DNA of 64,000 nt from an uncultured Clostridia bacterium (GTDB taxonomy: Bacteria; Acidobacteriota; Blastocatellia; HR10), in the NCBI GenBank assembly GCA_964615335.1, contig CAZTMT010000005.1, positions 107,104 through 171,103 on the forward strand, read 5' to 3'. Below the pieces are notes generated by a model that was not told the DNA's origin, did no database searches, and was given only the letters and a program-made list of their open reading frames with translations. Numbering within the stretch: the first letter of the stretch is position 1; every line of letters begins with the position of its first letter. Positions 2,954-32,399 of this stretch are shown here, piece after piece. The position numbers and the translations under genes were made by a program.

Positions 2954-3024
2954 AATCCCTTTTTGCGGAAATCCCCGCCGCACGAAGCGACCTTTGGGCC
3001 GGCGGTCCGAGGACGCGGGACTCG

Positions 3025-3408
3025 TCAGAGAGGTCGCCGTTCCGGCGCCAGATCCGCCCCCTCGCCCAGGCGACGGTCGCCGGAACGATAGCTCCTGAGC
3101 ACCTGGTCGAGCAATTCGCCCGCTTCTGCGCTGCGCTGCGCCAGTTGAGCGTCCAACTGCTCGTACCGCTGCTTCATCTGATGCAACTCGTCGGCGATCA
3201 GCAACGCCGCCAAAATGGCGACCTTCAGGGAGTCCACCGTGAGGGTCTTCGAGGCGATCTCGCGCATGTGGCGATCCACATACGCGGCCAGTTGCTGGAT
3301 GTACTCGGCGTTGCCGTCGGCGCGCAAGTTGTAGGTTTGATTGTAGATCTCGACTTTCACTGTTTGTGTGCGCGTTGTCTCCATAGGCTCCTGCGTTCCT
3401 CGTCTCAT
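3025..3408 (-). CDS. zapA: Cell division protein ZapA
   Basis: ZapA-like sequence (VKVEIYNQTYNLRADGNAEYIQQLAAYVDRHMREI) with a coiled-coil C-terminus. The ATG at 3408 overlaps the upstream stop (ATGA). An alternative ATG at 3384 follows AGGAG. Confidence 0.75.
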   Translation of the reverse strand: MRRGTQEPMETTRTQTVKVEIYNQTYNLRADGNAEYIQQLAAYVDRHMREIASKTLTVDSLKVAILAALLIADELHQMKQRYEQLDAQLAQRSAEAGELLDQVLRSYRSGDRRLGEGADLAPERRPL

Positions 3409-3689
3409 CGCATGGAATCCACCATCTCCTGCTCCAGAACCGAGAGAGCTTCGAGCATGGCTTCGATCTTGAGCTTGATCGCATCGCGTTCGGTCAGCAG
3501 GCGCTCCACCTGAGCTTCCAGGCGATCTTTCTCGGCCAAAAGCGCGCTGATCTCTCGCCGCATCGTCAGGATCTCTTTCTCCAGCGCTTCCTTCTCTTGC
3601 CGCAGAGCCTTAAACTGCTCAATGGCGCGGTAGATCTTATCTTCCAGGTGCGCGAACTTTTCCAGCCCACTTAATCCCGCCACGATCAT
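3405..3689 (-). CDS. ZapB-like coiled-coil cell-division protein (DUF904-like)
   Basis: LSGLEKFAHLEDKIYRAIEQFKALRQEKEALEKE... is fully coiled-coil and resembles the ZapB family. The ORF is open to 3746; start chosen at the internal ATG after GGGGAGGG. Confidence 0.55.
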   Translation of the reverse strand: MIVAGLSGLEKFAHLEDKIYRAIEQFKALRQEKEALEKEILTMRREISALLAEKDRLEAQVERLLTERDAIKLKIEAMLEALSVLEQEMVDSMR

Positions 3690-25691: not shown

Positions 25692-25808
25692 TCCAGTTCA
25701 CCTGGGATCGCCTCTCTCATGCGATCTTCGGCATCGCGGGGAAGAGATCCGGTTCTTTCTCTCACGAGCCAGGGCGATCGGTCGTGCGGTTTCTTCGAGG
25801 AGGGGGAA

Positions 25809-28508
25809 ATGAGGGCTCGATCTCCGGCCAGAGCGCTTGTTCAAGGGCTGCTCCTGATCGTGCTGGGGGGATGGGGAGGGCGCGGGATCGCGCAAGAGCG
25901 TCGCTCCGTTGAACCGGCCAACCAAACGGCGTCCACGACGACCGGGGGAACCAGCACCGGTCTCTTCCTGACCTGGAGCGGGCGCACGCTGCGCCGGGGG
26001 GAGTATACGCTGGGCCTCTTTTGGAATAATTTCGATCGGGATCCCGGCGATTTGGATATCAATCAAGCCTCGATCGCCTTCACGCTCGGCCTGACCAATC
26101 GGCTGGAGCTTTTTCTGGCGGCGAATGTTCTGCAGCAGGTGACTTCGCGTCAGCCTTTCGCCCTCTCCGGATATCAGTTTCATGGCCTGCGCAGCGCCTT
26201 CGGGGGCGATCCGTTTGTCGCCTTCGGATCGCCGGTGGGAGGGCGTGAGGGGGCAGCGGCGTTCTTCCCGTTGAGCGGAGCGCGCCTGGGGGGGATTTTG
26301 CCTCCGCCGGGCAGTTTCTTCGGACCCGCGATTTTGGCCGATCGGCCGAGTTTCTTCAACGAATGGCCCTTTTTCGGTCCGGCGGCCTTCCTCTCGCGCG
26401 AGCAGGGATTTGATCTGCAGCGCTCGGCCAACGGCATGGGGGATGTCACCCTGGGCCTGAAAGCGGCGCTGGCGGATCCGGCCGGCTCGTTCCCCCTGGC
26501 TCTGGCGGCTGTGCTGCGGTTGCCTTCGGCTCGGCACCTGGAAGCGTTAGCTCGCGGGAGGAGTTCGGGAGCTACAGATTTCGGCGTGATTGCGATCTCC
26601 GGCCAGAATGCCTGGGGCCACCGCCTGCGCCTGGTGCAAAACATCGGATATATTCGTTCGGGCGATCCGAAACTCAGCGGGGTGAAAATCCTCGATCGGC
26701 GCGATCAACTGCTGCTCAACGCGGGCGTTGAGATCGCGCCAGCCCAATGGCTTGTGCTTGTGGCCGAATGGGCGAATACGATCTATGTCTCTTCGGGGAC
26801 GCCCAACCTGAACGCGGTGAATCCTTCCGACCTGCTTCTTGGGGCGCGCCTGTATGCTTACGAAGGGCGCGTGCAGGTCGGAGGAGGGTGGCGACGCTTC
26901 CTCACCCAATCGGATCGGCGTGCGATCCCCGTCTTTCAGCCCGGCCGGGGTGTGTCCTCTCTGGACATCAGCTCGCGTGAGGCCAACGGCTTCGTCTTCA
27001 ACTTCGCTCTGGCGCGTCGAGCCTCTCTTCTTCCTCCTCCTGTGCCCAATCGCGCGCCGAGCGTCACGCTCTTTGCCGATCGCACAGAGGTGCGCGATGG
27101 GGAGCGCGTGATGCTCGAAGCGCGCGCCTTCGATCCGGATAACGATCTGTTGACCTACGCGTGGACGATTGAGCCTCCGGTCCCTCGCGAAGCTCTTCAG
27201 GCTGTCGGGGTGCCGCCGGGAGCGCCGCCGGGGAACCGTCTGCTGCTCGATACGACAGGATGGAATCCGACGCCGGGGGCTCCGGCTCGCACTTTCACCG
27301 TGACGGTTCAGGTCGAGGATGGGCGAGGGGGGATCGCTTCGGATCGGCGCGTGATCACGGTAGCCTCGCCGCCTCCTTCGCCCCCGCCGCCTCCTCCTCC
27401 GCCTCCCCCGCCGCCGGCGAATCGTCCTCCGGTGATTCGCGAGATCGAGATCGCGCCCGTCGGGGCTCCGCAAGTTCCCGGGCAGATCACCGATGGGGAT
27501 CTGCTGCGTCTGCGAGCCATTGCGGAAGATCCCGATGGAGATGTGCTTGTGTATCGCTGGAGCGCGACAGCCGGGCGCTGGGTCGGCGTCGGAAGTGAGA
27601 TCACCTTTGATACAGCGGGCATCACAGCCGGTCCCGGACAGCCGCCGGTCGCCGTGACGATCACGGTGACCGTGGATGATGGCCGAGGTGGTGTGGAGAG
27701 AGCTTCGCGTACGATCACAGTCGTCGCCGTGAAGCGTCCGGAACCAATCCCGCAGCCGGCGCTCTTCTTCGCTCGCCCGAACGCAGCGCGCATCACCAAC
27801 GCGCATAAGGCGATCCTCGATGATGTCGCCGATAAGCTGCGGCAGGACCCGCGCGCGACGCTCATCATAGATGGGCATCAGGATCGGGCCGAGCGGGCAA
27901 ATGTCGCCCGCGCACGCGCACAAAACGCGGCCGATTATTTGATTCGGCAACGCAGGATCGAACGGAGGCGTATTCGCGTGCGGAGCTTCGGAGCCCAACG
28001 TCCTCATCCCAGTGGACAGCGGCGGCGAAATCGGCGCGTGGAGCTGTGGATCCTCCCGGTCGGAGCGGAGGCGCCTCCGGAAGGGCAAGCGACTCCGCAG
28101 GCATTTCGTTTAGAACGGCATCCCGTGAGCGCCGTGGCGAGGGCCGGACAATCTGCCGGAGAGAGCACGCGGGCCTCCGCTTCCCCGGAAGACCAGAGGC
28201 CGATTTCGGCGCCAGCCGATCCGCGACGCCGTCCCTTGCGCGTGGGATCTTCGAGAGAGACACAGGTTGTGTCTCAGGCGGCCGGAACGTCGGCGCTCGT
28301 CGCTTCTGCGGCTTCGCGTCGTTTTGCTTCGGCTGTGCCGCAGGCGCGGAACGCCTCTGAATCTCGTCCGGCCCGTCGCGGACGAAAGCTAGCAGCTTCT
28401 GCACGTCAGGCGCTGGGCGTCCGATCCTCTTCGGTTCGCGCTGCCCTGAAGGGAAAGCCTTCGCGCGTCGGGCGGATCTCCTCTCAACTGGCCCGCCGCA
28501 TGGAGTGA
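25809..28508 (+). CDS. Surface/outer-membrane protein: β-barrel-like N-terminal region, two PKD-like domains with a poly-Pro linker, OmpA/MotB C-terminal peptidoglycan-binding domain, basic low-complexity tail
   Basis: Signal peptide with GAGGAGGGGGAA RBS. Amphipathic β-strand-rich N-terminal ~400 aa. DPDNDLLTYAW and DPDGDVLVYRW are PKD-like. A P12 stretch is present. The OmpA-C motif is IDGHQDRAERANVARARAQNAADYL...VELWI. Confidence 0.8.
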   Translation: MRARSPARALVQGLLLIVLGGWGGRGIAQERRSVEPANQTASTTTGGTSTGLFLTWSGRTLRRGEYTLGLFWNNFDRDPGDLDINQASIAFTLGLTNRLELFLAANVLQQVTSRQPFALSGYQFHGLRSAFGGDPFVAFGSPVGGREGAAAFFPLSGARLGGILPPPGSFFGPAILADRPSFFNEWPFFGPAAFLSREQGFDLQRSANGMGDVTLGLKAALADPAGSFPLALAAVLRLPSARHLEALARGRSSGATDFGVIAISGQNAWGHRLRLVQNIGYIRSGDPKLSGVKILDRRDQLLLNAGVEIAPAQWLVLVAEWANTIYVSSGTPNLNAVNPSDLLLGARLYAYEGRVQVGGGWRRFLTQSDRRAIPVFQPGRGVSSLDISSREANGFVFNFALARRASLLPPPVPNRAPSVTLFADRTEVRDGERVMLEARAFDPDNDLLTYAWTIEPPVPREALQAVGVPPGAPPGNRLLLDTTGWNPTPGAPARTFTVTVQVEDGRGGIASDRRVITVASPPPSPPPPPPPPPPPPANRPPVIREIEIAPVGAPQVPGQITDGDLLRLRAIAEDPDGDVLVYRWSATAGRWVGVGSEITFDTAGITAGPGQPPVAVTITVTVDDGRGGVERASRTITVVAVKRPEPIPQPALFFARPNAARITNAHKAILDDVADKLRQDPRATLIIDGHQDRAERANVARARAQNAADYLIRQRRIERRRIRVRSFGAQRPHPSGQRRRNRRVELWILPVGAEAPPEGQATPQAFRLERHPVSAVARAGQSAGESTRASASPEDQRPISAPADPRRRPLRVGSSRETQVVSQAAGTSALVASAASRRFASAVPQARNASESRPARRGRKLAASARQALGVRSSSVRAALKGKPSRVGRISSQLARRME

Positions 28509-28682
28509 GCACGGCGCTTCGAGGCGCGAAAGCTCTTCCGGGCTTCAACTCTGCTCTGTCGGCGTGTCGCCGCGCGCTCCGTGGGCATTACGCGTGATGT
28601 CCCCATCAGGCGGATACCGCGAGCGCGGGTCTTGACCTTGACACGTGCTATAGGGTTTATCATGGGGAGCCGGGAGGGAGAG

Positions 28683-29144
28683 ATGCCGGGCCGACACTTC
28701 TTCATCGGCGAGCTGGCCAGGGCCGTCGGGGTGAACCCGCAAACGGTTCGCTATTACGAACGCGCGGGGTTACTGCCGCGCGCGGCGCGGACGCCGTCCG
28801 GGTATCGCCTCTACGATGAGGAGGCCGTTGCGCGGCTCCGATTCATCAAGGCCGCTCAGTCCCTTGGCCTGTCGCTGCGAGAGATCCGTGAGATCATCGC
28901 GCTCAGTCGTGCGGGCCGATCTCCCTGCGCGCGCGTGCGCGCTCTGCTTCACCAGAAGGTGCGGGAGCTGGATCACAAGATCGCGCAGTTGCGCGCCTTC
29001 CGCCGAGAGCTGGCCGCGCGCCTCACACAGTTGGAGCATATGCCCGATGATGCGGATTCCTCGCCCTATGTCTGCTCGCTCATCATGGCCGTTGCCCGGC
29101 ATCGCTCATCCAGAAATCCCCATGAAAGGAGGGAAAGCGTATGA
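28683..29144 (+). CDS. MerR-family transcriptional regulator (metal/redox sensor type)
   Basis: MPGRHFFIGELARAVGVNPQTVRYYERAGLL is the canonical MerR helix-turn-helix N-terminus. Coiled-coil dimerisation helix with Cys in SPCARV, plus a C-terminal Cys (YVCSL). GGGAGGG RBS. Confidence 0.85.
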   Translation: MPGRHFFIGELARAVGVNPQTVRYYERAGLLPRAARTPSGYRLYDEEAVARLRFIKAAQSLGLSLREIREIIALSRAGRSPCARVRALLHQKVRELDHKIAQLRAFRRELAARLTQLEHMPDDADSSPYVCSLIMAVARHRSSRNPHERRESV

Positions 29145-29311
29145 AGCGCACACGCCGATGGGTGCTTGTTTCTCTGCTCGGAGCTGCCGTGGGGATCGGG
29201 ATGCTCTCGGCATTGTGGGCATCCTCAGGTGATCCCACGAGCTGTCCGGGACGCATCGTCTGTCCGCTCACGGGGAAGGTCATCTGCCGAGACGCCTGCC
29301 CGCTCAGGTGA
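29141..29311 (+). CDS. Small secreted 4-Cys peptide (56 aa), translationally coupled to the MerR gene
   Basis: ATG at 29141 overlaps the MerR TGA stop (ATGA). AAAGGAGGG sits 8 nt upstream. Sequence is MKRTRRWVLVSLLGAAVGIGMLSALWASS|GDPTSCPGRIVCPLTGKVICRDACPLR, with a Sec-type signal peptide and a mature part bearing C-x5-C-x7-C-x3-C with three CP dipeptides. Not in the ORF track because it is shorter than 60 aa. Confidence 0.55.
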   Translation: MKRTRRWVLVSLLGAAVGIGMLSALWASSGDPTSCPGRIVCPLTGKVICRDACPLR

Positions 29312-29744
29312 GCGGCGCACTCGGGGGCACTCCGGCGAGCCTTCGGCGTGCGGAGAGCCCCCGCTCGGTTTGTCATCCACCGAACCGGATGAAGCGTCGC
29401 GTCCTGAGGCATTGTGGGCGTGGCGTCGGTTTGTAAGAGGCGCGAGAGCCCCCTCACCGGTGATGCCGCACCGGTGAAGACGTGACGTGCGCGTTACTCC
29501 GGTTTCCTCACCTCTGGCGGCCCATCCCCACTATGTCCTCGCCGAGCCTTTTCGCCGACTGCCACGACCGGAAGGGACCTAATCGAGTTCAAACAACCTT
29601 AAAATCGTCCTAGACAAACCGTCATCCCATCGCTTACTAGTGACGGGCGGGCGCAGATCAGGAAGAAGCACGAGGGGTTGGGGATGCGCCCAGTTGCCGG
29701 TTTGGGGTGGTGTTTGATCTTCCCTGAGAAAGGAGACCAAGAGC

Positions 29745-32399
29745 ATGTTATCCGGGAGACGGATCATCGGACTTCTCATGGCAGTCGTGATGGCGGGAGG
29801 AATTCCTTCCCGGGCGAGTTCCCAGGAGCGCCTCGATGAGATCATTCGCAGTGGCTTCATCTACCGCAATCTCGGGCCGTTTCGCGCAGGCGCGTGGATT
29901 TCGGATATCGCCGTGCCGGAGACGCCGTTGAAGTCGCACTTGTATACCTTCTACGTGGCCGCGCGACATGGCGGCGTCTGGAAGACGACCAACAACGGGA
30001 CGACGTTCGAACTCGTCTTTGACCACCATTTCTCGATCGGGGCGATCGCCATTGCTCCGTCGAACGAGAACATCGTATGGGTCGGTACGGGTGAAGCGTC
30101 CAATGCCCGAAGTTCCTACGCAGGGGATGGCGTGTACAAATCCCACGACGGCGGGAAGACCTGGCAGAACATGGGTCTGCGGGACTCCTATCACATCGCG
30201 CGCATCGTGATTCATCCGACCAATCCCGACATCGTTTATGTCGCTGCGGTGGGCCACTTGTTCACGACCAATGAAGAACGCGGCGTGTTCAAGACGACCG
30301 ATGGCGGCAAGACGTGGACGAGAGTTCTCTACGTCAACGACCGGACGGGAGCCATTGACCTCGTCATGAGCCGGCGCGATCCCCAGGTGCTCTACGCGGC
30401 GATGTACGAGCGGCGGCGCCTTCCCTGGGGATTCGAGGACGGAGGGCCGGGAAGCGGCATCTACAAGACCACCGATGGCGGAACGAGTTGGAAGAAGCTC
30501 GAGGGGGGATTGCCCAGCGGAACCATCGGGCGCATCGGATTGGACCTCTATCAGAAGAATCCCCGTATCGTCTACGCAGTCATTGACAACCGCAATCCTC
30601 GCGCCAGAATCGAGGGCGAACAGGAGATGACCGCGCCGGTCATCGGGGGCGAGGTTTATCGCAGCGATGATGGTGGAGCGACCTGGCGGAAGATGAATTC
30701 GGAGCGCGACGATGTGAGCCGCAAATCGGGATATGCTTTCAATCAGATCCGGATTCGTCCCGATAATCCCGACCGGATTTATGTCACGGGCGCCTCTCTG
30801 ATCAGTTCCTCCGATGGGGGGAAGACATGGGTAGGGCTGAGCGGCGGGCCGCAGGAGGATCGTCCCTTCCGACGCGCCTTCGGAGATTTTCGCACGCTCT
30901 GGATTGATCCGCAGAATCCCGATCGAATGATCGCGGGCACCGATGGGGGTGTCTACATCTCTTACGACGGCGGCAAGACGTGCGATCACTACTGGAACAT
31001 CCCGCTGGGTGAAGTCTACGCGCTGACGGTGGACATGGAAGAGCCGTACAACATCTACGCTGGGCTTCAAGATCACGAGTCGTGGAAGGGACCGAGCAAC
31101 GGCTGGTCCGGCAGCGTCGGGCTGGCCGATTGGGTGACGGTGGGAACTGGCGACGGCATGTACAATCAGGTGGATCCGACCGATAGCCGCTGGGTTTACA
31201 ACACGCAACAGTTCGGAGGTCATGCCCGGTTCGATCAAAAGACGCGCGTGCGGAAGATCATCGCGCCGACGCGCCCGCCGGGCCAGCCCCCCCTGCGGTT
31301 CAATTGGGTCGCTCCGCTTCGGCTCTCGCCGCATAATCCGCAGATCCTCTACGCGGGCGCTCAGGTGCTCCTGCGCTCACTGGATCGCGGAGAGCACTGG
31401 CAGGAGATCAGTCCCGATTTGACGACCAACGATCCGCGCAAGATCAGTCCGCCGGGCGCTCCCATTCAACATTGTACGATCACGACGATCTCGGAATCCC
31501 CGGTCACGCCGGGCGTCATCTGGGTGGGCACCGATGATGGCCGAGTTCAGGTGACGCGCGACGGCGGCGCGACGTGGACCGATGTGACGCCGGCCCTGGC
31601 GAAAGCGGGAGGTCCCGAAGACGCCTGGGTGACGCGCGTCTTCGCCTCGCACTTCGAGGCCGGAACGGCTTATGTGGCCAAGTCGCGGCGCTACCAGGAC
31701 GATTTCCGCCCCTTTCTCTACAAGACGACCGATTACGGCGCGACGTGGACGTCCATCGCCGGCGATCTGCCGATGCGCTCGATCAACGTCATCTTCGAAG
31801 ATTACAAGAATCCCGATCTGCTCTTTGTCGGCAACGACTGGGGCGTCTACGTCTCGCTGGATGGGGGGAAACATTGGGCGGTGCTGCGAGGCAATATGCC
31901 TCCGGTTCCGGTGCACGATCTGGTGATTCATCCGCGCGATGGCGATGTGGTCGTGGGCACCTACGGGCGTGGCCTCTGGGTGACCGACATCGCGCCGCTC
32001 CGCGAGGTGAGTCCTCAGATCCTCGACCGCGAGGTCTATTTCTTCGCCATTCGTCCCAGAGCCCGAAGACCAGAAGGCGCTTTGGGAAATTACCGGCTTT
32101 TCGGAGATCGTTTGATCGTGACGCCGAACGAGCCCAATGGGCTCACGTTCACATACTATGTGAAGGAGGCCCGAGAAAGGGTCACGCTCACGATCACCGA
32201 TCTCTCGGGCGCTCCGGTGCGCACTCTGGAGGGGACGGCTAAGGCTGGGATCAATCGCGTCGTCTGGAGCTTCCAGCCGACGGGCTCGCCGGGACGTTCC
32301 CGCGGCTCAACCCAGCGCGAGGTCGAACCGGGAGAGTACGTGGTGACGCTCCGAGTCGGCGAGAAGGAGTACACGCAGAGAGCGCGCGTTCTGCCGTGA
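29745..32399 (+). CDS. BNR/Asp-box repeat (sortilin/VPS10-like, GH74-like) secreted protein
   Basis: Signal peptide. At least 9 S/TxDxGxTW repeats (SHDGGKTW, TTDGGKTW, TTDGGTSW, SDDGGATW, SSDGGKTW, TRDGGATW, TTDYGATW...). 884 aa. Confidence 0.85.
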   Translation: MLSGRRIIGLLMAVVMAGGIPSRASSQERLDEIIRSGFIYRNLGPFRAGAWISDIAVPETPLKSHLYTFYVAARHGGVWKTTNNGTTFELVFDHHFSIGAIAIAPSNENIVWVGTGEASNARSSYAGDGVYKSHDGGKTWQNMGLRDSYHIARIVIHPTNPDIVYVAAVGHLFTTNEERGVFKTTDGGKTWTRVLYVNDRTGAIDLVMSRRDPQVLYAAMYERRRLPWGFEDGGPGSGIYKTTDGGTSWKKLEGGLPSGTIGRIGLDLYQKNPRIVYAVIDNRNPRARIEGEQEMTAPVIGGEVYRSDDGGATWRKMNSERDDVSRKSGYAFNQIRIRPDNPDRIYVTGASLISSSDGGKTWVGLSGGPQEDRPFRRAFGDFRTLWIDPQNPDRMIAGTDGGVYISYDGGKTCDHYWNIPLGEVYALTVDMEEPYNIYAGLQDHESWKGPSNGWSGSVGLADWVTVGTGDGMYNQVDPTDSRWVYNTQQFGGHARFDQKTRVRKIIAPTRPPGQPPLRFNWVAPLRLSPHNPQILYAGAQVLLRSLDRGEHWQEISPDLTTNDPRKISPPGAPIQHCTITTISESPVTPGVIWVGTDDGRVQVTRDGGATWTDVTPALAKAGGPEDAWVTRVFASHFEAGTAYVAKSRRYQDDFRPFLYKTTDYGATWTSIAGDLPMRSINVIFEDYKNPDLLFVGNDWGVYVSLDGGKHWAVLRGNMPPVPVHDLVIHPRDGDVVVGTYGRGLWVTDIAPLREVSPQILDREVYFFAIRPRARRPEGALGNYRLFGDRLIVTPNEPNGLTFTYYVKEARERVTLTITDLSGAPVRTLEGTAKAGINRVVWSFQPTGSPGRSRGSTQREVEPGEYVVTLRVGEKEYTQRARVLP

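Follow-up and report, generated by a model that had tools for sequence, protein, structure and literature searches.

Promoters activated by MerR-type regulators are recognized by a long spacing between the -35 and -10 elements that is combined with an inverted repeat, and in the mer operons of Bacillus and Staphylococcus merR is itself the first gene of the operon. Among the other products of these operons, MerE, MerF, and MerT have two or three transmembrane helices with a Cys pair inside a helix, and a vicinal CC pair is the device used by MerA and MerT for the hand-off of Hg(II). The locus presented here has such a promoter and begins with merR. It lies in a stretch of 64,000 nt from an uncultured Clostridia bacterium (GTDB lineage Acidobacteriota; Blastocatellia; contig CAZTMT010000005.1, positions 107,104 to 171,103), which is called the window below. 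It consists of a merR gene and of an overlapping gene for a Cys-rich protein of 56 aa (the mini-protein). This protein probably represents a metal-binding component of mercury-type resistance systems that has so far escaped notice.

The Gram-positive mer operons (Bacillus RC607/MB1 and S. aureus pI258) show the same co-directional, autoregulated arrangement of a long-spacer promoter, merR, and one or more effector genes. They differ from the window in the effector, which is a single 56-aa protein here with no merT, merP, or merA, and in the regulator, which in the window has a Met at the equivalent of C114 and a coiled coil longer by seven residues. Functionally, the closest known counterpart of the mini-protein is MerP within such an operon starting with merR. 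Like MerP, the mini-protein is small, Cys-bearing, predicted to be exported, and placed behind a MerR-controlled promoter; genes of its family adjoin MerT-type importers and MerA in many relatives, and the role is likely the same, that is, the capture of a soft metal outside the cytoplasm and its handing on. On the contrary, the two proteins are not related in sequence or fold: HMA/MerP models were not matched at E values up to 0.1–1, and the predicted structure is a helix followed by a two-stranded hairpin. MerP has the HMA fold with one GMTCxxC motif, whereas the family of the mini-protein is composed of one to three C-x5-C-x7-C-x3-C repeats, often with a CC tail. Since some proteins carry the repeat together with an HMA domain, it cannot be viewed as a simple replacement of HMA. 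The copy in the window has no transporter partner.

CueR, ZntR, and CadR/PbrR, with promoters such as PcopA and PzntA, share with the window the operator CTTGACCTT...AAGGT inside a 19–20 bp spacer and a regulator built of a helix-turn-helix and a coiled coil. Their NCBIfam models score 90–103 bits for the MerR of the window, yet all of these scores are below the cut-offs. The ligand set of the window regulator (C82 and C131 with a PDDADSS loop) fits no characterized site, and the gene under its control does not encode a P-type ATPase. Finally, MerE, MerF, and MerT are also small, membrane-associated, Cys-bearing products of mer operons, but the mini-protein has one helix with all four Cys outside of it, and it showed no Pfam or NCBIfam match to MerT, MerE, MerF, or MerC.

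The order of the unit is promoter, merR, mini-protein gene, and hairpin (table 1), and we regard it with high confidence as a self-contained, autoregulated two-gene operon; the same confidence, taken together, applies to the statements on the family below. The first-pass annotation of this DNA had already placed the unit at 28632–29311, a span that covers it, with the correction that these coordinates begin at the promoter and merR only at 28683. The merR gene starts at ATG 28683 behind the Shine-Dalgarno sequence GGGAGGGAG (28672–28680) and stops at TGA 29142–29144. An in-frame ATG at 28662 was rejected as its start, as it is located inside the -10 element. The ATG of the small open reading frame (ORF) at 29141 overlaps the merR stop as ATGA and its own stop is TGA 29309–29311. 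This overlap had been recognized at first sight, as had the strong Shine-Dalgarno sequence AAAGGAGGG at 29125–29133, and both are borne out. The 56-aa product, MKRTRRWVLVSLLGAAVGIGMLSALWASSGDPTSCPGRIVCPLTGKVICRDACPLR, contains the four Cys and three Cys-Pro dipeptides previously described. An independent gene caller, applied to another assembly with an identical peptide, also predicts both genes, with matching coordinates and products of 153 and 56 aa. The small ORF is co-transcribed with merR and very probably translationally coupled to it.

Table 1. Features of the merR–mini-protein unit (positions within the window)
Feature	Position	Strand	Basis or remark
MerR-type promoter	28632..28663	+	-35 TTGACC 28632-28637, spacer 19-20 bp, -10 TTATCA/TATCAT 28657-28663
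Operator dyad ACCTTGACA-cgtg-CTATAGGGT	28635..28656	.	Degenerate, 5/9 positions symmetric
merR, 153 aa	28683..29144	+	Pfam matches and independent gene call
Shine-Dalgarno AAAGGAGGG of the small ORF	29125..29133	+	Inside the 3' end of merR; read from the sequence
Gene of the 56-aa Cys-rich mini-protein	29141..29311	+	ORF list, homologues P0001-P0004, codon constraint, independent gene call
Putative hydrophobic signal/anchor helix WVLVSLLGAAVGIGMLSALW, residues 7-26	29159..29218	+	Preceded by basic MKRTRR
Cys-rich core CPGRIVCPLTGKVICRDACPL, C-x5-C-x7-C-x3-C	29243..29305	+	Near-invariant in the clade; beta-hairpin in the model
GC-rich hairpin GGGGGCACUCCG...CGGAGAGCCCCC with weak U-tract GGUUUGU	29323..29373	+	RNA fold

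The small ORF is well represented in other genomes. A word-index search retrieved four homologous clusters (P0001–P0004), which are 62–96% identical. In their alignment, the N-terminal half drifts yet stays basic and then hydrophobic. The 21-residue core, CPGRIVCPLTGKxICRDACPL, is invariant save for one V/I/L position among members of this clade that are 62–71% identical overall; one further clade copy (L013) deviates more, its core ending with Ile rather than Leu. Across the clade loci, the 21 codons of the core show synonymous differences (pS) of 0.12–0.69 against nonsynonymous differences (pN) of 0–0.054. These values mark the small ORF as a true coding sequence that is maintained by strong purifying selection. 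Gene callers in other assemblies call it as well. The conservation of the regulator–peptide pair in related genomes, which had been named as a check in the first-pass annotation, was found in 14 related loci and in about 50 distant ones. Every clade locus with upstream sequence has a MerR of 148–153 aa directly upstream, separated from the peptide gene by -4 to +5 nt. The clade loci originate from hot-spring and subsurface metagenomes and from Acidobacteriota/Blastocatellia metagenome-assembled genomes (MAGs; HRbin08, HRbin10, JZ-3, and others).

The mini-protein belongs to a large family. When the whole library was searched with the clade profile in HMMER, 134 representatives were obtained at E ≤ 1e-3, and the profile search of clusters at 90% identity increased the family to at least 928 clusters. 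The search by profile that had been suggested from the sequence alone thus leads to a family for which neither Pfam nor NCBIfam has a model. The source names of its members are all "hypothetical protein," and Planctomycetes MAGs contribute many of them. The window peptide and eight longer members matched no Pfam-A or NCBIfam model, except for HMA in the fusion proteins. A sequence search of the PDB with the family profile gave no match below E 0.9, and Foldseek of the AlphaFold2 model against the PDB gave none of significance (best E 5.7, with unrelated zinc fingers as top matches). A two-repeat member had no tblastn match among 72,556 plasmids, and no description of the Cys-rich repeat family was found in the full-text literature, searches with the literal motif strings included. 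What is new here is the protein family itself, together with its systematic linkage to MerR and mer genes.

For the family statistics, 255 proteins were in hand, 248 of which have the exact C-x5-C-x7-C-x3-C unit, once in 108 proteins, twice in 135, and three times in five. The consensus of the unit is R-x-D-C-P-G-K-I-x-C-P-L-T-G-E-x-V-C-x-D-x-C-P-L, with strong conservation of Cys (100%), Pro (96–98%), Gly (95–98%), Asp (96%), and Thr (91%). Of the 248 members, 242 have a hydrophobic segment at the N-terminus, 208 end in a flexible tail with a vicinal CC pair, and 22 are short forms such as that of the window. At all conserved positions of the repeat C-P-G-x-[IV]-x-C-P-[LI]-T-G-x-x-[VI]-C-x-D-x-C-P, the window sequence CPGRIVCPLTGKVICRDACP agrees. 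The local family HMM scores the window protein at E 3e-21, and a profile built from the window protein retrieves the family. In place of the R-x-D ahead of the first Cys (R in 92%, D in 89% of the units), the window has P-T-S before Cys35, and the clade relatives have P-[STA]-[SG]. The window protein ends three residues past its last Cys. By its sequence, it is classified as the shortest form of the family, with a single repeat and no tail.

The genes around the family members were examined in the Pfam-annotated contigs of three distant members and in 55 metagenome loci, with local HMMs. Upstream sequence was sufficient for 51 distinct proteins. In 43 of these, the gene immediately before is a MerR gene in the same orientation, at -21 to +137 nt, and in three more the MerR gene comes directly after. 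The first-pass annotation had considered the co-directional coupling of a MerR gene unusual; it is in fact ordinary, and within this family it is the rule. Downstream, MerT, MerTP, HMA, or zf_CopZ(-MerT) is next to the family gene or fused in 19 of the 44 loci with enough sequence, and a MerT-HMA fusion in Acidobacteria relatives exceeds the cut-off of the MerTP equivalog (191 vs. 180 bits). A direct link to mercuric reductase is found in L046 (152–2292, + strand), where the family member overlaps by ATGA a 600-aa MerC-MerA fusion, with the MerC membrane domain at the N-terminus and a full MerA behind it (TIGR02053, 550 bits vs. a cut-off of 454; Pfam MerC, 44.5 vs. 27.6). By these scores, the fusion is identified as a bona fide mercuric reductase. 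In L061, the Cys-rich gene stands between a candidate P-type ATPase, as judged by us from the translated ORF, and an incomplete MerA with an HMA domain at its start. P0016/L070, L067, L074, and P0116 are fusions that join the repeat to HMA domains. Elsewhere in the Acidobacteria, a Cys-less two-helix ORF of 55–72 aa comes after the pair, sometimes with an outer-membrane-like protein and an HMA protein; a zf_CopZ protein, a MerT-HMA fusion, and a second MerR, which has three Cys, also occur there.

Some of these neighbors and fusions show further features. The multidomain proteins of L067 (3824–5371), L074 (504–1856), and P0116 consist of a signal, one Cys-rich repeat, a CPAC region, and an HMA domain, and are encoded directly after a MerR; the C-terminal region of P0116 has a sub-threshold match to Thioredoxin_3 (21 vs. 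24.8 bits). In L017 (5316–6335), L042, L049, L052, and L054, a zf_CopZ/CopZ_Nterm_CC domain, annotated as a putative Fe-S metallochaperone, is fused to a MerT-like membrane domain directly after the Cys-rich gene. The two-helix Cys-less ORF (L001, 6347–6526; L007, 1689–1898; L008, 354–572; L010, 8415–8582), which is the next gene after that of the peptide in most Acidobacteria relatives, matches positions 22–91 of merT_RC607 weakly (E 4e-5, 23.8 bits vs. a cut-off of 130). These positions represent MerT minus its Cys-bearing first helix, so that one may think of a split MerT for which the peptide would provide the thiols. In L007, the peptide pair is followed by a metal island, in which an ORF at 2971–3534 (+) encodes a signal peptide and an HMA domain with the metal motif G-M-I-TGA-G-L-TGA. 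Its in-frame TGA codons are located at both CxxC positions, making it a candidate UxxU selenoprotein-type periplasmic metal binder, and gene callers split it into ORFs of 35 and 127 aa.

The promoter also agrees with a MerR-controlled unit. As reported from the sequence alone, a MerR-style promoter with a long spacer is present: TTGACC (28632–28637), 19 nt, and TTATCA can be read directly, and it is conserved in orthologous loci. Alignment with these loci indicates that the -10 is better read as TATCAT (28658–28663), with the spacer then being 20 nt. The element is kept in seven of them as CTTGAC(C/T)TTG....AGGTTTA(T/G)A(A/C)T, and the upstream regions of the clade align as CTTGAC(C/T)-TTGCAGTTGGCTGCAAGGT-TTA(G/T)A(A/C)T, with the -10 at 19–20 bp from the -35. 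Both the spacing of 19–20 bp and the inverted repeat within the spacer, which define the MerR type, are found in the window element. The imperfect dyad noted in the first pass does exist, but it is not centered at CACGTG, the true center being one base to the right; in L010 and L012 the same position has a perfect 9+9 dyad, ACCTTGCAG-N4-CTGCAAGGT. A standard sigma-70 scan with spacers of 16–18 bp found no promoter at the locus, because the MerR-type spacer is over-long.

In the wider family, an operator of the type ACCTT...AAGGT is located upstream of merR or of the Cys-rich gene in 31 of the 33 distant loci checked, and the window promoter aligns with the TTGACC-ACCTT..AAGGT-TAnAnT promoters of these other loci. 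Two operon architectures were distinguished. In architecture A, to which the window belongs, the MerR-type promoter precedes merR, and the Cys-rich gene follows at less than 30 nt; this promoter was found upstream of merR in 16 of 18 tightly coupled loci. In architecture B, merR is followed by a gap of 56–137 nt which holds the MerR-type promoter (e.g., CTTGACCTTGCACCAAGGTGCAAGGCCGATACT) and then by the Cys-rich gene, and all 15 loci with such a gap have the promoter between the two genes. In A and B alike, no other effector gene stands between the MerR-type promoter and the Cys-rich gene.

At the other end of the unit, the hairpin folds at -42.2 kcal/mol (z -2.8), a stability reached by none of 200 shuffles, and it is conserved in L009, a 96%-identical relative that shares 90% identity over this region. 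The transcription unit probably ends here. A simple terminator scan did not call the hairpin, because the U-tract is weak.

The regulator was correctly taken for a MerR-family sensor in the first pass and, by its Pfam and NCBIfam matches, is of the heavy-metal type. The Pfam models MerR_1 (5e-21), MerR-DNA-bind (2e-19), and MerR (4e-17) are matched above their cut-offs. The NCBIfam list is led by heavy-metal models, namely ZntR (1e-29), MerR (6e-29), CadR/PbrR (7e-27), and CueR (8e-26), all below the equivalog cut-offs (PRK09514 ZntR, 103/143; TIGR02047, 93.9/151; TIGR02044, 90.6/147; TIGR02051, 100.9/150.85 bits). NmlR and SoxR models match as well, more weakly (E 5e-17 and 4e-15). The closest solved structure is 4ua1 (E 1e-21), titled in the PDB only as "Regulatory protein," which we take to be the MerR of Bacillus megaterium. 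These matches assign the window MerR to the heavy-metal-responsive subfamily.

The only Cys residues of the window MerR are C82 and C131. Cys82 aligns with C82 of Tn501 MerR, C79 of ZntR, and the matching Cys of 4ua1, whereas the corresponding residue of E. coli CueR is Ser; the dimerization helix thus begins with the Cys that is typical of divalent-metal sensors. The first Cys of the metal loop, by comparison with 4ua1, is replaced by Met in the window and by Met or Leu in the clade relatives. Of the loop pair that completes the three-Cys Hg(II) site (C114/C123 in Bacillus, C117/C126 in Tn501), only Cys131 is found. The loop itself is rich in Asp and Ser (PDDADSS; PD[DQ]ADSS in the clade), and the dimerization helix of the clade is seven residues longer than in the partner MerRs of the wider family. 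The clade therefore has a variant sensor site. The partner MerRs of the wider family keep the three Hg(II)-type Cys, with C-x7-9-C loops as in Tn501 MerR, and hence the family, taken together, seems to respond to Hg(II) or to divalent soft metals.

The N-terminus of the mini-protein is MKRTRR followed by a hydrophobic stretch of 20 residues, and the export-type N-terminus that had been proposed is retained here as an export or anchor signal, with a basic and a hydrophobic segment and a predicted helix. AlphaFold2, run on an alignment of 50 sequences, gave a mean predicted local distance difference test (pLDDT) score of 70, with a helix at residues 3–27 (pLDDT ~73–75) and a small beta-hairpin (strands 38–40 and 47–49) bracketed by Cys. 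All four Cys are C-terminal to the predicted helix. From the basic N-terminus and the hydrophobic helix, an N-in, C-out orientation is predicted. A signal peptide is plausible from the model, with possible cleavage after L-W-A (-3/-1 site L-W-A|S), and an uncleaved membrane anchor would fit equally well, because the hydrophobic stretch is long; the 27-aa mature peptide of the first pass would require such cleavage. HMA fusions behind the same N-terminal hydrophobic segment (e.g., P0016) fit an extracytoplasmic repeat, the location of the HMA domain being presumed from that segment. The motif T-R-R is conserved in the clade and is Tat-like there only; given that RR is not conserved family-wide and that the segment is very hydrophobic, these features favor Sec over Tat. 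A lipoprotein was considered and rejected, as there is no lipobox before Cys35 (P-T-S-C).

On balance, the mini-protein is best interpreted as a metal-induced, extracytoplasmic, thiol-rich metal binder which is MerP-like in role and unrelated to MerP. Metal binding as such is somewhat favored; mercury specifically is a possible identity of the metal that we hold tentatively. Of the roles imagined in the first pass, the periplasmic metal chaperone is the one best supported by the context of the relatives, with MerT, MerTP, HMA, zf_CopZ, and MerC-MerA as neighbors or fusion partners. A wider proposal falls a little short of an even chance: the family would be an unrecognized, widespread core component of MerR-controlled soft-metal systems, a non-HMA, MerP-like receptor feeding MerT/MerTP/MerC-MerA, and the 56-aa form of the window a minimal and self-sufficient version, a stand-alone periplasmic thiol "sponge" paired with a two-Cys MerR.

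The mechanism that we infer is as follows. A dimer of the heavy-metal-type MerR would sit on the dyad inside the over-long 19–20 bp spacer. As with MerR, CueR, and ZntR, the bound inducer would then realign the -35 and -10 elements and switch on both merR itself and the coupled 56-aa gene. The basic and hydrophobic N-terminal segment would direct the protein into or across the cytoplasmic membrane, so that the 21-residue four-Cys knuckle would reach the outer (periplasmic) face, tethered or released by cleavage. There, the thiolates of the knuckle would most likely bind a thiophilic metal, with Hg(II) as the best candidate and Cd, Pb, Zn, Cu(I), Ag, and Au as others. The role would be that of a MerP-like scavenger or buffer, and in relatives the metal may be passed to MerT, MerTP, or MerC-MerA. 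In this genome, as no transporter is nearby in the window, the peptide would act alone as an inducible sequestering "sponge."

Several observations weigh against this interpretation. Apart from the pair, the 64-kb window has no MerT, HMA, or zf_CopZ by local HMMs and no MerA by search of the active-site motif. In the family, only 2 of some 61 loci have MerA as a neighbor, and roughly half of the pairs are isolated. The window dyad is a degenerate copy of the ACCTTGCAG-N4-CTGCAAGGT of the clade, and the MerR of the clade, lacking the first loop Cys, does not have the canonical trigonal Hg(II) site. Concerning the mini-protein itself, the window form has neither the CC tail nor the R-x-D motif, its Cys spacings (C-x5-C and C-x3-C) differ from those of classical metal knuckles, and with no fold or sequence relative in the PDB there is no precedent in that database. 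In addition, four Cys in an oxidizing compartment could form two structural disulfides.

The last point leads to the best surviving alternative, which we nevertheless consider unlikely: a structural or redox peptide stabilized by two disulfides that protects the envelope from redox or other stress, with the two-Cys MerR sensing thiol or oxidative stress, maybe through an inter-subunit disulfide. The reduction of the clade MerR to C82 and C131, with one canonical metal ligand lost, is consistent with this, as are the matches to NmlR and SoxR, which are redox- or electrophile-sensing members of the MerR family. So are the absence of metal genes from the window, the predicted Cys-flanked beta-hairpin, compatible with two disulfides, and the thioredoxin-like CPAC regions of some family fusions. 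On the other hand, the neighbors and fusions of the family are metal-specific (MerT, MerTP, MerC-MerA, HMA), and the metal-type MerR models fit far better than NmlR and SoxR (1e-29 vs. 5e-17). The dimerization helix of the window MerR starts with Cys as in MerR and ZntR, and partner MerRs elsewhere have the full three-Cys site.

A small membrane subunit or modulator of a transporter is a still more doubtful possibility. The mini-protein would be the detached, thiol-bearing first helix of a MerT-like channel, the partner of which was lost or is encoded elsewhere in the lineage of the window. The Cys-less two-helix ORF that comes next in the Acidobacteria relatives, similar to MerT (RC607) from position 22 onward, points in this direction, and the hydrophobic segment of 20 residues is more anchor-like than a cleaved signal peptide. 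However, the match of this ORF to MerT is far below the cut-off, and the ORF is absent from the window and from L014, yet the peptide stays strongly constrained; a remnant of a small MerT-like two-helix ORF was sought in the window and none was detectable. The Cys of the peptide are outside the predicted helix, unlike the in-membrane pair of MerT, and most members of the family are longer, multi-repeat, and soluble-looking.

A secreted toxin, bacteriocin, or ribosomally synthesized and post-translationally modified peptide (RiPP) under MerR control, suggested in the first pass by a small, Cys-rich product with an export-type N-terminus, is very improbable: no maturation enzyme, immunity gene, or dedicated exporter is adjacent in the window, nor in some 70 related loci, where metal-handling genes are the neighbors, the core is near-invariant across phyla rather than diversifying, and the hydrophobic N-terminus looks like a Sec-type signal or anchor and not like the leader of a known RiPP class. 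A chance ORF with a coincidental ATGA overlap, conceivable in high-GC DNA rich in spurious ORFs (about 58 of at least 30 aa in 6.5 kb here), is effectively refuted by the pS and pN values of the core, by the same position and strand across phyla, and by the number of homologous clusters.

If the metal binder reading holds and the family binds Hg(II) or other soft metals, a new type of protein is added to a textbook system. Its members would then flag a capacity for metal handling in Planctomycetes, Acidobacteriota, and other environmental lineages, in which, to our knowledge, merA is rarely reported. Surveys of mercury resistance use a fixed list of genes, that is, MerA, MerB, MerP, MerT, MerC, MerE, MerF, MerG, MerR, and MerD (e.g., PMC8261052). 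The Cys-rich family is not on this list, so mercury gene surveys may be incomplete. Furthermore, a metal-binding scaffold of 21 residues from thermophiles could serve in biosensing or sequestration, and the pair of the window provides a simple test system with one regulator, one promoter, and one 56-aa product.

The neighbors of the locus are an OmpA-family protein and a BNR/sortilin-type protein, as shown by Pfam. Downstream, Rfam and tRNA scans of 28300–29900 gave no match, and the segment of about 370 nt that follows the hairpin (29374–29744) is without a convincing ORF and precedes the BNR/sortilin-type gene (29745–32399). The contig of L009 covers 29250–29683 of the window, where it ends, at 90% identity. 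Upstream, the gene at 25719–28508 (+) encodes a protein of 929 aa with Big_9/PKD-like repeats and an OmpA-family C-terminal domain. This protein contains a proline-rich tract of 16 residues, PPPSPPPPPPPPPPPP, and its gene ends 175 nt before the start of merR.

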